Positions 23,233 through 44,324 of a stretch of 64,000 bases of DNA are shown one piece after another. The position numbers and the translations under genes are program-made. The notes beneath the pieces are model-generated. The model was given only the letters and a program-made list of their open reading frames with translations. It searched no databases and was not told the DNA's origin. This stretch comes from Escherichia coli (GTDB lineage: Bacteria > Pseudomonadota > Gammaproteobacteria > Enterobacterales > Enterobacteriaceae): the NCBI RefSeq assembly GCF_013315695.1, contig NZ_CP054353.1; one strand, written 5' to 3'. Positions within the stretch are counted from its first letter, which is position 1. Every line of letters starts with the position of its first letter.

Positions 23233-23862
23233 TTATTTAACCGTCCAGGCGCGGGAAAATTGACGGTCGGCAAACAACTCTTGCAGGCCGTTAATTTGCT
23301 TCAGGCGCAACACTTCGTCGCTGTCCATTCCCAGCTCTTTGCCAATTTTATTATCGTCCCATCCCAACTGGCTGAGTTCACGGACGATTTCTGACATGGC
23401 AGTGATTTGGTGACGTCCACGAGCGCGATTATGACGAATAGTCGCGGCGATGCGTTGATTACGCGTACCTTCCAGACAGGTCACCGGCAAATAACCTTTT
23501 AAGCGTAATTTTAACGATGATGAGCCTTTACCAATTTCATGGCGGTGAAAACCATCCACGATTTCCAGGGCATTTTTATCCGTATGCGTGACCACAATGG
23601 GTTGGGTAAAACCATCTATTTCAATGGATTTTTTCAGCAGTTTTTTTTCGGGTGGTGCCACGTTGTTTGGGTTGTAATCATTAGGCATAAGTTGGCTGTT
23701 TTTAACCCACAGAACGCAATCCACTGGCTCTTCACGAAAGGGGCTAACCTGATGGATCGCCATGCGGATTTCATTAATCGCTTTGATGCGATCATCTTCC
23801 GGCAAGCTGGCGAGAAATTGGGTTAAATCCTGCGTTAATCGTTGTTGCATAGTATCCCCCAT
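23233..23862 (-). CDS. ybdM: ParB/sulfiredoxin-like domain protein YbdM (IbrB-like)
   Basis: 209-aa ORF; ParB-like core …IVDGFHRHE…; its start overlaps the 3' end of ybdN by 28 nt. Confidence 0.85.
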   Translation of the reverse strand: MGDTMQQRLTQDLTQFLASLPEDDRIKAINEIRMAIHQVSPFREEPVDCVLWVKNSQLMPNDYNPNNVAPPEKKLLKKSIEIDGFTQPIVVTHTDKNALEIVDGFHRHEIGKGSSSLKLRLKGYLPVTCLEGTRNQRIAATIRHNRARGRHQITAMSEIVRELSQLGWDDNKIGKELGMDSDEVLRLKQINGLQELFADRQFSRAWTVK

Positions 23863-25055
23863 TCCTGACGTTTTCCTTTTATCCGTTCGTTATAACGCTG
23901 ATAGTTCTTCGCTTTCGTAGGACTAAATGATAATGCCCGGCACCAGTAATCGTTATTGAGTAAAACTTTGCATATTCGCCGCCAGGAGGGGATATCTTTC
24001 GCGCCAATGTCCCCTTGCTGGGTTTGTGGAACTTCGATGCCTTTTTTCTGATACCAGTGCAAATAAATGGCGATTTTATTGCGGTAATGCTCAGCTGTTT
24101 TTTCCGGCATGCTATTGAGCAGCAATAATGCATATTCTTGCCAGTCTAAATGTTCTGGCTTGAGGATTTTCCGATGACCATAAAAATGATTATCATGTCC
24201 GGCGTAAATGCCGCCACTTTTTACCCCGCTGACTCGTGCGCACATAGCAGCCCAGCGATCCGGTTCGATAACGTGATAGAGCCATAATCCTTGCCGTTGC
24301 TCCGGGCCAAAAGGTTCGCAAATTCGCATATGACGCAGAGGAACGCCTGCCTGATACATTATATTATACAGTGGGTTACAGAGCTGTTGATGGTTAGCAT
24401 ACCAGGTCCAGATATCAGCCACTTTCCAGTCGTAGATGGGGTAAATGTACCAACTATGACCGCCTGGTGCGGCGGTGGTCCAGGGCTTATCATCGGCAAA
24501 ACGTTGTTTATTTAAACTGGCGATGGCGACAAAACGGTTGTAGGACTCATCTGCACGGATGCCGATCATCATCGCCGCCGGACGTTTTTGTGAAAACCAT
24601 TCAGCAAACTCACGCACAAATTGTTCGAAGGTCATGCCAGGCTGGTAAAAGGAGAAAAAGTCAGGATCGGTTATCGCATCTTGCGGAGGCTGACGCACCC
24701 ATTCGACATCAGGTTCCCAGCACTGCCATTCGGGTTGGTATTGAGAAAGGGAATTTTGCGTCGTAAGCGGGAGCGCAACCCAGTAAAACTCTTCGATGAC
24801 ATCGGCGTAAAACTCACGTAATGACTGAACATAGTTAATAGTGCATGAGAACTGCGCTTCCCAGTCGATAAACAAAACGCAGATTTTTTTGCCCATTTGT
24901 CGGACAATTTCGGCGGTCAGATGCAGCATTAATCCGGAATCTTTACCACCCGAAAAAGAAACGCAGACACGGGGTAGGGTATTAAGTGTCCAGGTAATAC
25001 GTTCTTTTGCAGCTTCCAGAATATTCAGTGGAAGCGGGATTTTATAAATAGACAT
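23835..25055 (-). CDS. ybdN: PAPS-reductase-like (PP-loop ATP pyrophosphatase family) protein YbdN (IbrA-like)
   Basis: 406-aa ORF with the PP-loop motif SFSGGKDS near the N-terminus. Confidence 0.85.
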   Translation of the reverse strand: MSIYKIPLPLNILEAAKERITWTLNTLPRVCVSFSGGKDSGLMLHLTAEIVRQMGKKICVLFIDWEAQFSCTINYVQSLREFYADVIEEFYWVALPLTTQNSLSQYQPEWQCWEPDVEWVRQPPQDAITDPDFFSFYQPGMTFEQFVREFAEWFSQKRPAAMMIGIRADESYNRFVAIASLNKQRFADDKPWTTAAPGGHSWYIYPIYDWKVADIWTWYANHQQLCNPLYNIMYQAGVPLRHMRICEPFGPEQRQGLWLYHVIEPDRWAAMCARVSGVKSGGIYAGHDNHFYGHRKILKPEHLDWQEYALLLLNSMPEKTAEHYRNKIAIYLHWYQKKGIEVPQTQQGDIGAKDIPSWRRICKVLLNNDYWCRALSFSPTKAKNYQRYNERIKGKRQEWGILCNND

Positions 25056-25201
25056 CTAAAAACGCTCTCTGAACGTTACGGGGTGACTCGTGAGATGAAT
25101 CCGCTAATTATAGGATAAACGAAGCAAGATAGAGCACATTATTTTATATTCACATAATGAATTAATTGATGCGTAATATATTATTTGTCAGTGGTAATGA
25201 A

Positions 25202-26104
25202 TCAGAAGCTATCATTTAAACGATCTATGAATCGGGAGAAGACAAGGTTGTTCAACGAAGCCTTGTTATAGGAAATATAAAGTTTAACCGCAGGAAGAGG
25301 TTGTTCCAGTTTTATTTCTTTTAACTTCAAAAAGTCACGATGTAAATTGTACAGTTCGGTGGGCACAATGCCTAATAAGTCAGTAACAGAAATACTATTA
25401 ATTATAGTCATCAAAGAAGAACTGCGAAATGAAACTTTACGGTTCATAAAGCGTTCATCTATGTCCATTTGAATTTCGTCAATCCCTGCTGATTTAGATA
25501 TCAACAGGGTGAATTCTTCGGCGATAATTTGTTCATAGTTACTGGTATCAGTAATACGAGGATGTTTGTTGCTACATATAAGGGAATTGCGAATAGTGTG
25601 TAACGGCATGCAGATGACAGAGCGACTAATTACTGGTTGTAGTGTAATTGCCAGGTCAGTTTTGCGTTGAACCAACAGTTCTTCGGCATTTTCAGCTGAA
25701 AGCAGTATGTCATGGCATTCTATATCGATTGAAGTATCTTGTCTAAGACAGCGGATTAGCATGTTGTTATTAGTACAAGAAATAAGCTGAGGACCGTAGA
25801 TAATAAAATTTTTCTTTAGTTCAGACTTATTAACGATATTGATCGTTTGTTCAAGGCCTCTGAGATTTTTCTCAAGATGGTGATGCAGGTTTAACCCTGT
25901 TGTAGTCGGCGCGATACCTTTCCCTGAGCGAATGAATAACGGGTCATTAAATTGCGCACGTAAACGTTGTAACGACTGACTAACAGCAGAGGGCGTTATA
26001 TATAATGATTCTGCCGCTTTACTAATGCTGAGATGTTGATAAATACATTCAAATATAACCAGTAAATTGAGGTCAAATTTTTTTAGATCATAAAGATTAG
26101 CCAT
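25202..26104 (-). CDS. ybdO: LysR-family transcriptional regulator YbdO
   Basis: Start MANLYDLKKFDLNLLVIFECIYQHLSISKAAESLYITPSAVSQSLQRLR (HTH), about 300 aa; AT-rich coding sequence. Confidence 0.85.
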   Translation of the reverse strand: MANLYDLKKFDLNLLVIFECIYQHLSISKAAESLYITPSAVSQSLQRLRAQFNDPLFIRSGKGIAPTTTGLNLHHHLEKNLRGLEQTINIVNKSELKKNFIIYGPQLISCTNNNMLIRCLRQDTSIDIECHDILLSAENAEELLVQRKTDLAITLQPVISRSVICMPLHTIRNSLICSNKHPRITDTSNYEQIIAEEFTLLISKSAGIDEIQMDIDERFMNRKVSFRSSSLMTIINSISVTDLLGIVPTELYNLHRDFLKLKEIKLEQPLPAVKLYISYNKASLNNLVFSRFIDRLNDSF

Positions 26105-26308
26105 AACATACTCCGTTGTATTGTCTCTTCCATAAATCATTCACTTGATCAATAATGTTGTTGTATTTATATGTGTTATGTTTTTCTGCTTAACTTTGGA
26201 TTAAGATTTTCTAAAATAGCATAGCTGTCAGGTGGGTTACGAGCAATTCATGCTTTTTTAGGATGGTTGAAAAGCAGGGATATATTTCAACCATCCATGA
26301 ATTATCTT

Positions 26309-27055
26309 TTATTTATTCCCCATAATGATATTAAGCGTTTTCTGATCGGGCAACCCCACGGCCTGTTGCAGTGTATTTTCCTTACTCATGTAATAGATAG
26401 CTGGCGTGACATTTGCCCCCAGATCGTCCATCAGTTTCTCGTTATCGCTTAACACTTTCATTTGCTCTGTACTTACGTTTGCAGGCACGTTTAGCTTAAG
26501 CTTGCCACCAGAGGCTTCATATTCTTGCCAGGTTTTTGCGGGATCTTTGGAGGCAAGAATTGCCGCTGCTGTCGCCGGGCTTTCTGGCTTGATAACGCCA
26601 ACCAACAATGTTCTTAATTGCACTTTGCCAGAATCTACCCACGGGCGAGCCTGCTGCCAGAACTGTTTACAATATGGGCAGAACGGATCGGCGAAGACGT
26701 AGACAATGACCGGCGCGTCTTTTTTACCGTCGAGGAGCCAGTGGGATTGTTCCATCCGTTGCCACATTTCACGTCCGGCGGGTGCGTAAATTTCTTTTTC
26801 GATAAGCGTGTTACTCAGGTTTTCACCTTTTTCGTTGTACATGTAACCAGAGATAGCGTGCTTACCATCTGGAGTCAGGTAGATGGTGACGCCCATATCC
26901 TGATACTTACCGAGATAACCTTTCATTCCTCCAGGGGCATCGAACGTTTTGATGATTGTAATACCCTGTTTTTCAATCGCTTTTACTGGGGCAGGAAGTT
27001 CCTCTGCGAAGGCGGTTGCAGGAAGCAGGGCCAGTAAAAGTATCTTTTTTAACAT
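26309..27055 (-). CDS. dsbG: Periplasmic thiol:disulfide interchange protein DsbG
   Basis: Start [21 protein letters not shown] (signal peptide); CPYC active-site motif present; 248 aa. Confidence 0.9.
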
Positions 27056-44150: not shown

Positions 44151-44324
44151 GACAAATGAAGTTTTAGTAAATTCTTTAAAATCAACCACTAAAATAATTA
44201 ACATCAAAAATAACGCGACTTTTATCACTTTTTAGTAAAGTTGCACTGGACAAAGCGTACCACAATTGGTGTACTGGTAACCGACACAGCATTTGTGTCT
44301 ATTTTTCATGTAAAGGTAATTTTG

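Follow-up and report, generated by a model that had tools for sequence, protein, structure and literature searches.

Introduction

The closest described relative of the system treated here is IbrAB, in which a gene for a protein with a phosphoadenosine phosphosulfate (PAPS) reductase domain and a DUF3440 domain is followed by an overlapping gene whose product combines a ParB_N domain with a helix-turn-helix (HTH). IbrAB reportedly activates the prophage eib genes, which encode immunoglobulin-binding, autotransporter-type adhesins, and this is the one published phenotype of the family. The subject of the present study is the ybdN–ybdM gene pair of Escherichia coli, together with its LysR-type repressor citR, in a 64,000-nt stretch of contig NZ_CP054353.1 that will be called the window. 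The pair has the IbrAB architecture, that is, a PP-loop domain of the PAPS-reductase fold is followed by DUF3440 in YbdN, and the co-directional, overlapping downstream gene encodes a ParB_N protein. The same domain pairing had been pointed out in an earlier annotation made from the letters of the window without database searches (below, the sequence-only reading), and it is reflected in the databases: YbdM is 'IbrB-like' in RefSeq, and in phage records the homologues go under 'co-activator of prophage gene expression IbrA/IbrB'. However, while IbrAB is encoded on an island, ybdNM is a core, syntenic and CitR-repressed chromosomal copy.

Several other systems share parts of this architecture. 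The CTP-dependent regulators VirB of the Shigella plasmid pINV, KorB of RK2, and Noc resemble YbdM in having a ParB N-domain with equivalents of boxes II and III, followed by an HTH (a probable one in YbdM), and in the association with H-NS-silenced, horizontally acquired virulence loci. YbdM differs from them in having DGFHR and HNRAR in place of GERR and ENLQR, and in ending without a C-terminal dimerisation domain; moreover, the obligate PP-loop enzyme partner of YbdM is absent from VirB, KorB and Noc. In the DNA phosphorothioation systems DndC/DndB, SspD/SspB and BrxP, a PP-loop ATPase of the PAPS-reductase fold likewise has a partner from the ParB-like superfamily, with DNA as the presumed target, and DndB, SspE and Srx have been assigned to this superfamily (PMC11662687). 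YbdNM differs by the lack of Fe–S cysteine ligands, of a cysteine desulfurase, of DndD/E or SspC partners and of a restriction module, and its scores are far under the cut-offs. In DpdA/DpdB, known for 7-deazaguanine DNA modification, and in the ParB–methyltransferase fusions of phages and plasmids, a ParB-like NTPase domain delivers or powers a DNA-modifying enzyme (PMC12839542), but the partner of YbdM is a PP-loop ATP pyrophosphatase and not a tRNA-guanine transglycosylase or a methyltransferase. Finally, ninC of phage lambda is annotated as belonging to the PAPS reductase family (PMC10695390). YbdN matches the corresponding family of PAPS-reductase-fold phage proteins, phrog_424, with 2e-18, although this family is separate from the full-length YbdN family, phrog_2302.

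The genes themselves are already known and annotated (in RefSeq, citR is 'DNA-binding transcriptional repressor CitR', ybdN 'phosphoadenosine phosphosulfate reductase' and ybdM 'IbrB-like domain-containing protein'), and the regulator has been characterised; what remains is the biochemistry of the pair. The sequence-only reading had called the function unassigned, and in agreement with this our literature search found no paper assigning a biochemical activity to YbdN, YbdM, IbrA or IbrB. YbdM was detected by proteomics as 29-fold increased in cells carrying the blaCTX-M-15 plasmid pUUH239.2, and was there called 'completely uncharacterized' (PMC8764527).

On the basis of the analysis presented here, we propose, with a probability of roughly 0.4, that ybdNM is an IbrAB-type, DNA-targeted co-activator or counter-silencing module. 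By sequence comparison, YbdNM is neither a sulfur-modification system of the Dnd/Ssp type nor a recognisable defence system. What is new here is the quantification of the pairing, the cysteine analysis that disfavours sulfur chemistry, the GNAT-like and SNF2 partners, the virulence-linked accessory pairs and the dimorphism of citR.

Results and Discussion

The YbdN–YbdM pair

The pairing of YbdN with YbdM is near-obligate in bacteria, plasmids and phages. A genome scan yielded 79 loci from Proteobacteria, Firmicutes, Bacteroidetes, Lentisphaerae and other groups; a 12-sequence YbdN alignment was used for it, the alignment of 59 homologues being too divergent for scanning. A YbdM homologue lies on the same strand in 78 of the 79 loci, in 77 of them directly downstream, and the co-occurrence across genomes that the sequence-only reading had named as a check is thus conserved. 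In the phage collection, YbdN and YbdM match 224 and 226 records, respectively, with equal counts per genus (Flavobacterium 90, Mycobacterium 60, Streptococcus 21, Arthrobacter 12, and others), and the pair is present in ca 0.4% of sequenced phages. Each of three metagenomic YbdN homologues, on phage-like contigs, is also followed by a ParB_N gene. Two side observations can be mentioned here. One contig of Edwardsiella ictaluri carries two pairs of the YbdN–YbdM type ca 6 kb apart (L031:9995-11837 and L031:17283-19141), and two short 'phage' records, OR851112.1 (2.8 kb) and OR845499.1 (2.3 kb), which match YbdN with 81% and YbdM with 78%, resemble chromosomal or island fragments.

YbdN matches the Pfam models PAPS_reduct (4.4e-14) and DUF3440 (5.1e-23), and the motif SFSGGKDS, from which a PP-loop protein had been suggested, is present at residues 33–40. 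The PP-loop domain (residues ca 28–235) belongs to the branch of PAPS reductase, FMN adenylyltransferase (FMNAT) and CysD, and is followed by the helical DUF3440 (ca 237–400). The AlphaFold2 model obtained from the 59-homologue alignment has a predicted local distance difference test score (pLDDT) of 91.6. About 170 residues align to solved folds, with TilS, TtuA, QueC and the GMP and NAD synthetases among the neighbours, while the helical DUF3440 half has no solved relative. Over the 59 homologues, G37, K38 and S40 of the SGGKDS PP-loop are invariant, as are D64, E66, W119, D214 and Y230; R121, G165, R167, E170, S171 and R174 are conserved to at least 90%, and the GIRxDES motif is present.

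It is important to point out that no conserved set of cysteines or Fe–S ligands was found among these 59 diverse homologues. C246, C362 and C372 are conserved to 51–58% each, and all three occur together in 6 of the 59. One column of the family is cysteine in 85% of the sequences, but it is alanine in E. coli and other enterobacterial proteins. To our knowledge, every PP-loop sulfur-transfer enzyme requires a cysteine or a Cys-ligated cluster, and chemistry of the Dnd, Ssp or CysH type is therefore disfavoured. The conservation pattern argues for YbdN being a PP-loop ATP pyrophosphatase whose chemistry would be plain adenylyl transfer, with ATP converted to AMP and pyrophosphate (PPi).

The scores of YbdN against curated models are low, 35.6 bits for the PAPS reductase TIGR02057 (cut-off 254) and 22.8 bits for the DndC model TIGR03183 (curated cut-off 290.4), whereas the phage family phrog_2302 is matched over the full length with 6.6e-76. 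In PADLOC-DB v2, no significant defence-system match was found for either protein; there are only marginal, partial hits of YbdN to DndC (E=9.5e-6, residues 155–254) and BrxP (E=3.4e-5), and of YbdM to the ParB–methyltransferase fusion MTase_II (6.5e-4). The resemblance to DndC and SspD that had been noted earlier is therefore real at the superfamily level but goes no further, considering the DndC score, the PADLOC match over only ca 70–100 residues and the missing set of conserved cysteines.

A number of identifications were considered and rejected. A known defence system was discarded because the PADLOC hits are marginal only, and phosphorothioation of the Dnd/Ssp/BREX type because of the scores, the lack of conserved cysteines and the lack of partner genes. 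Genuine CysH or CysD function was discarded on similar grounds, that is, low scores, no conserved cysteine (in CysH, the catalytic one of a C-terminal ECGLH-type motif) and no partner genes; the induction of the CysB regulon in the citR deletion strain (ΔcitR, see below) is a hint in its favour. Another option considered was the 'NAP + PAPS reductase' operon, a defence candidate of a 2026 preprint. However, its nucleoid-associated protein (NAP) is YejK/NdpA-like with at least 300 residues, and is not the HU gene found upstream of the Clostridial pairs.

Turning to YbdM, its ParB-like character, suggested earlier from the motif IVDGFHRHE (present at residues 101–109), is supported by a ParB_N match of 2.8e-4 and by matches of E≤1e-3 for 29 of 48 family members. 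With a profile of these 48 sequences, the best match in the PDB is Noc (7ol9, E=2.7e-7), the alignment extending from the N-domain as far as the HTH region of Noc, such that VDGFHR falls on ParB box II (GERR) and HNRAR on box III (ENLQR). N61, N64, P65, N66, E72, D103, G104, R107 and P126 are among the invariant residues, N145 and R148 are conserved to at least 97%, and the segment TIRHNRARGxH (141–151) to at least 95%. The signatures of the family are N-D-Y-N-P-N-x-V-A, S-I-x-x-D-G, V-D-G-F-H-R, T-I-R-H-N-R-A-R-G-x-H and G-M-x-x-D-E-x-x-R-L-K-Q, the last one being a helix pattern compatible with an HTH; a single-sequence structure model was unusable (pLDDT 46.7). The C-terminal dimerisation domain of ParB is not present, as YbdM ends ca 25 residues past the probable HTH. 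The protein matches phrog_2159 over the full length (1.1e-68) and the ParB–methyltransferase fusion family phrog_498 with 1e-10, and the profile has weak matches to serine kinases of the Srx fold. The position of the catalytic cysteine of sulfiredoxin is occupied by F105, a phenylalanine in 84% of the family. On these alignments, YbdM is a predicted ParB-fold protein that keeps the motifs of the nucleoside triphosphate (NTP) pocket and probably an HTH.

Regulation by CitR

The regulator matches the CitR model of NCBIfam, NF047710, with 455 bits (cut-off 400). Rodionova et al. (Sci Rep 2022, PMC9068703) found a CitR peak 'upstream of citR-ybdNM' by exonuclease-based chromatin immunoprecipitation (ChIP-exo), and deletion of citR raised ybdN by 5.5 log2 units (45-fold) and ybdM by 2.5. 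In the same work, citR is stated to be H-NS-regulated. The sequence-only reading had regarded the whole locus as an under-described system; this remains correct for the chemistry of the pair, but not for the regulator, since YbdO is the published CitR.

A total of 86 genes are differentially expressed upon deletion of citR, and citR-ybdNM is the sole confirmed direct target (PMC9068703). CitR binding is absent at citCDEF (+3.3 to +4.4 log2), at lrhA (−4.3), at the flagellar genes, whose regulon is up, and at the whole CysB sulfur-starvation regulon, which is raised by 1.7 to 3.2 log2 in ΔcitR cells, where ybdNM is derepressed; ahpC is raised by 1.2 log2 (PMC9068703). The changes that take place without CitR binding may be downstream of YbdNM derepression.

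We also compared the locus with that of K-12. At the nucleotide level, ybdM and the greater part of ybdN have 96–99.5% identity, but the segment at ca 24,750–26,350, which takes in citR, the spacers on both sides of it and the 5′ third of ybdN, has an identity of only 70–80%, and dsbG is back at 96–100%. For citR itself the values are 80% (nucleotides) and 89% (amino acids), with residues 1–110, the HTH region, identical and the third codon positions merely 53% identical. The segment is bimodal over 5353 E. coli genomes, of which 1774 have at least 90% identity to the window, 3555 have 60–80%, and 24 fall between. CitR also evolves fast across genera, with 57% identity between E. coli and Citrobacter as against 84–85% for YbdN. 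The two classes indicate that citR exists as two ancient alleles within E. coli, a dimorphism that implies long-term balancing selection or introgression.

Proposed function and alternatives

In the mechanism that we propose, ybdN–ybdM would be a core-genome, normally silenced copy of an IbrAB-type module, held off by CitR in K-12-like cells. YbdM would load on DNA in a ParB-like, nucleotide-dependent manner, as the CTP-dependent VirB and KorB do, and YbdN would supply an adenylylation, from ATP to AMP and PPi, on DNA, on YbdM or on another chromatin or nucleoid protein. The outcome would be that silent, horizontally acquired genes are switched on, namely prophage eib in the case of IbrAB, adhesin, autotransporter and siderophore loci of islands and plasmids, and late or packaging operons of phages. 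The derepression of YbdNM may then underlie the indirect expression changes of the citR mutant.

This proposal is favoured because the pairing is obligate, YbdM is ParB/Noc-like, and both the PP-loop and the GIRxDES motif of YbdN are intact. It is favoured also because accessory copies of the pair adjoin virulence loci and regulators of the PerC/GrlA type; PerC and GrlA are activators of the H-NS-silenced locus of enterocyte effacement. In phages, the pair is usually located at the early/late boundary, adjoining or inside the terminase–portal block, and this is taken as support because late activators are typically encoded there. Finally, the 86 genes affected in ΔcitR, with one confirmed direct target of CitR, are taken as a further, though confounded, argument.

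There are a number of points that weigh against it. The binding of DNA and NTP by YbdM and the hydrolysis of ATP by YbdN are predictions, and the C-terminal dimerisation domain by which ParB clamps are closed is missing from YbdM. A conserved PP-loop enzyme would be superfluous for a pure transcription factor, and the SNF2 and GNAT-like partners described below are more in line with an enzyme that acts on DNA than with simple activation. Genes for phage DNA modification are just as typically found upstream of the terminase, and two phages have methyltransferases next to the pair. Adjacency to virulence genes is weak evidence because seven contexts were sampled and virulence islands are gene-dense mosaics, and the flagellar changes in the Keio citR mutant may be strain artefacts.

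The main competing explanation, which we consider unlikely but the most serious of the alternatives, is a covalent DNA modification that does not involve sulfur. Here, YbdM would target the DNA and YbdN would adenylate either the carbonyl of a base or a phosphate, in the backbone or at a terminus, in chemistry of the TilS/GuaA/NadE or CysD/FMNAT type, after which a nucleophile replaces AMP. A GNAT-like partner would help to supply the nucleophile in some lineages, the mark would guard mobile elements from restriction or label DNA before packaging, and any effect on expression would be secondary. The canonical, invariant PP-loop and the fold neighbours of YbdN fit this scenario, and so do the matches of YbdM to the ParB–methyltransferase fusion families and the location of the pair next to packaging genes. 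When all open reading frames (ORFs) of the 79 loci were clustered, only two neighbours were found to recur in the 60 loci outside Enterobacteriaceae, a GNAT-like protein (28 of 60) and an SNF2-type helicase directly upstream of the YbdN homologue (14 of 60), both of which would suit an enzyme acting on DNA, as would the methyltransferase genes beside the pair in phages Salgado and PBC5. Besides the GNAT-like and SNF2 genes, the clustering yielded lineage-specific housekeeping genes. On the other hand, we know of no modified base in any carrier phage, and no restriction, reader, DndA/D/E, SspA/B/C or BREX gene recurs in the clustered neighbourhoods; the co-occurrence with defence or modification genes raised by the sequence-only reading was thus not borne out in the 60 non-enterobacterial ones. 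The genes are also kept silent in E. coli, which would be odd for a self-marking system, and the family's only published phenotype is the activation of genes. It is important to note that co-activation and DNA modification are not exclusive, as activation could be brought about by a DNA mark.

The remaining alternatives have considerably lower probabilities. A role in packaging or at DNA ends, in which the ParB-like protein provides site recognition in the manner of a small terminase, YbdN adenylylates DNA ends, and the chromosomal copies are domesticated remnants, is improbable. In mycobacteriophage Akoma, the YbdM homologue gp5 overlaps the start of the large terminase gene, which is the usual position of the small terminase, and no small terminase is annotated; in the phages of Flavobacterium, Arthrobacter, Microbacterium and Pseudoalteromonas that were sampled, the pair is also at or near the terminase or portal, and the PBC5 record has it at its right end. 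However, Salgado has its own annotated small terminase beside the pair, in S. thermophilus phages the pair sits after the lysis cassette and in other prophage-like contigs among early genes such as RecT, Ant and DnaB, and packaging genes are absent from around the stable chromosomal copies of Enterobacteriaceae, Clostridia and Bacteroides. Sulfur or PAPS metabolism, with YbdN as a PAPS/APS-utilising enzyme (an 'auxiliary metabolic gene') or with a Dnd/Ssp-like phosphorothioation in which YbdM is the DndB-like partner, appears still less probable. The weak matches to CysH, CysD, DndC and BrxP models, the membership of DndB, SspE and Srx in the ParB-like superfamily and the induced CysB regulon are what speaks for it; they stand against the distance from the curated cut-offs, the lack of a conserved cysteine, the missing Dnd, Ssp and restriction partners, and a PP-loop that is intact in YbdN, unlike that of CysH, which does not hydrolyse ATP. 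A sulfiredoxin-like repair of over-oxidised AhpC or DsbG substrates by YbdM, whose fold is of the ParB/Srx kind, together with YbdN is the least credible of all. It could be connected with the neighbouring dsbG and ahpCF, with the increase of ahpC in ΔcitR and with the weak matches to Srx-fold serine kinases, but YbdM has phenylalanine in place of the catalytic cysteine, carries a probable HTH and aligns best with Noc/ParB, and the pair is abundant in phages and plasmids without any peroxiredoxin context, the dsbG–ahpCF adjacency being confined to Enterobacteriaceae.

Returning to the co-activator proposal, one can also speculate about a wider version of it, which we regard as doubtful, slightly more so than the non-sulfur DNA modification. 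YbdNM and IbrAB would then represent a new class of ATP-driven, ParB-guided switch of DNA or chromatin, in which a cysteine-free PP-loop enzyme adenylylates, or covalently marks in another way, DNA or a nucleoid protein where the ParB-like loader directs it, and thereby relieves the silencing of horizontally acquired genes. Such a switch would be reused by phages for the early-to-late transition, by islands and plasmids together with PerC/GrlA-type regulators, and by the chromosomes of Clostridia and Bacteroidetes together with the GNAT-like and SNF2 proteins.

Genomic context

The coordinates of the features and the sampled contexts are collected in Table 1. The GNAT-like protein has 118–168 residues and belongs to no family of PHROGs or Pfam. 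In Clostridia it is located between the two genes, and in Bacteroidetes its gene directly precedes that of the YbdN homologue. The SNF2-type helicase (phrog_62 at 3e-101) adjoins the 5′ end of the YbdN homologue. The Clostridial copies are chromosomal, between SpoVB/MurJ–HU and AspRS, and so are the Bacteroides copies, which lie beside AddAB-like genes. In phages, the pair is often accompanied by one or two extra ParB-like genes and sometimes by a methyltransferase.

Table 1. Features of the citR–ybdNM locus (positions in the window) and sampled contexts of the pair elsewhere (L-numbers designate the sampled loci).
Feature	Location	Strand	Description
ybdM	23233..23862	−	ORF, 209 aa; 99% identical to K-12 YbdM; IbrB-like, ParB N-terminal (NTP-binding-type) domain and probable C-terminal HTH
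ybdN	23835..25055	−	ORF, 406 aa; IbrA-like PP-loop ATP-pyrophosphatase domain and helical DUF3440
citR (formerly ybdO)	25202..26104	−	300 aa per RefSeq; LysR-type repressor of ybdNM
ybdN/ybdM overlap, 28 nt	23835..23862	−	From sequence; reduced to 16 nt with the ATG at 23850 as ybdM start
citR–ybdN intergenic, 146 nt, GC 0.336	25056..25201	−	TATAAT box and ca 45-nt Escherichia-conserved leader directly before the ybdN start
dsbG–citR intergenic, GC 0.319	26105..26308	−	citR promoter/operator region and hairpin with 12-nt arms, 26261–26296
GNAT-like partner, examples	L057:11288-11674; L083:8604-9011		Profile against PDB GNATs: 2eui 1e-4, PseH 2e-3
SNF2 helicase, examples	L040:8557-9993; L039:3367-4833; L007:552-1781		Often preceded by a ca 380-aa phage protein, phrog_16123
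Akoma (mycobacteriophage)	L001		gp1, gp4, gp5, then large terminase gp6; ParB-like gp1, gp5
Salgado (Arthrobacter phage)	L088		gp2, gp5–8, then small and large terminase; ParB-like gp2, gp5, gp7
Hendrix	L089		gp1–3, then large terminase gp5; ParB-like gp1–3
PBC5 (Bacillus phage)	L090		Genes 081–087, right end of record; ParB-like 081, 087
FCL-2			Pair between large terminase and portal
Accessory pairs, three of seven sampled loci (L092–L098)	L092:8989-11173; L097:7962-10165; L096:5729-9174
K. pneumoniae plasmid			iroBCDN immediately 3′ of accessory pair
Salmonella plasmid			iutA–iucABCD (aerobactin) adjoins accessory pair
E. coli IncF plasmid			F4 fimbriae and autotransporter upstream; PerC-family regulator directly downstream
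Second E. coli IncF plasmid			HyxB autotransporter and SPATE protease adjoin accessory pair
Salmonella plasmid			Co-directional GrlA-family – hypothetical – DUF3440 – ParB_N – GrlR-family
O157:H7 EDL933			Accessory pair, then PerC-family gene; island rich in insertion sequences, with Cah autotransporter
Uropathogenic E. coli strain			Accessory pair in island with TonB-dependent receptor

A second, accessory copy of the pair is present in 2137 of 5426 complete E. coli genomes (39%), mostly on chromosomal islands and with up to four copies. On plasmids, a YbdN homologue is found in 854 records, with Klebsiella (323), Escherichia (204), Shigella (123, remnants in the records listed) and Salmonella (34) as the main genera, and it is 57–58% identical to YbdN in the sampled enterobacterial records. 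A segment consisting of PerC plus a hypothetical gene occurs in 1067 E. coli genomes, counted irrespective of whether it is adjacent to an accessory pair.

Organisation and conservation of the locus

The arrangement given in the sequence-only reading, with a LysR gene beside a co-directional two-gene unit, corresponds to three ORFs on the minus strand, transcribed in the order citR, ybdN, ybdM. The 28-nt overlap of ybdN and ybdM was confirmed as well, and it implies that the two genes are probably translationally coupled. In all 19 enterobacterial loci (L009–L027), the YbdM match starts before the YbdN match ends. It should be noted that the Shine-Dalgarno sequence of the in-frame ybdM ATG at 23850 is better spaced than that of the first start, and that the citR ORF can be extended beyond the RefSeq start to an ATG at 26140.

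The region upstream of ybdN could not be aligned between genera, the conserved leader being limited to Escherichia. Near ybdN and citR, no parS-like site, conserved palindrome, operator or upstream motif was found, and the sole inverted repeat is the hairpin after dsbG. This is a perfect repeat, GGATGGTTGAAA ... TTTCAACCATCC, with a loop of 12 nt, directly 3′ of the dsbG stop codon, and it is also conserved in K-12, apart from one mismatch. The hairpin probably serves as the terminator of dsbG, although a T-run is missing behind it on that gene's strand.

As to the composition, the window has a GC content of 0.518 with a standard deviation of 0.05 (900-bp windows). A trough of ca 3 standard deviations is found at citR (0.369) and the intergenic flanks on both sides of it (0.32–0.34), while ybdN (0.464) and ybdM (0.467) are only ca 1 standard deviation low and match dsbG (0.471); the value for ybdL is 0.539. 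The description of the block as more AT-rich than its neighbours thus applies to citR and the flanks, and the 'island' composition does not extend to the enzyme pair. Two other troughs in the window are as deep as that of citR, at ca 38600-39700 and ca 42600-44200 (GC 0.38, with a minimum of 0.342 at ca 42900).

Strain MSB1_4I matches the segment 22900–26400 with 100% identity, and IAI39 and CE10 match it with 99.7%. The block is matched in 5422 of the 5426 complete E. coli genomes, 5318 of which cover at least 80% of the query, and the order dsbG–citR–ybdN–ybdM–ybdL is shared by Citrobacter, Enterobacter and allied genera, where YbdN is 72–85% and YbdM 62–81% identical to the E. coli proteins. 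This distribution does not support a recent date for the horizontal acquisition that had been suggested. Because the synteny spans the genera of Enterobacteriaceae and the block is near-universal in E. coli, any acquisition would have to be older than the family.

Conclusion

In viromics, the pair is routinely misread as a sulfur 'auxiliary metabolic gene'. The present results show that sulfur insertion can be discounted as its chemistry and that the two proteins belong together in any study of their function. The pair belongs to the core genome of E. coli, ca 39% of the complete genomes have a second copy, and 854 plasmid records contain it. If it is true that it marks DNA, this would be a new modification chemistry, and if it is true that it controls adhesin, autotransporter and siderophore loci, it would constitute an unrecognised layer of virulence regulation.

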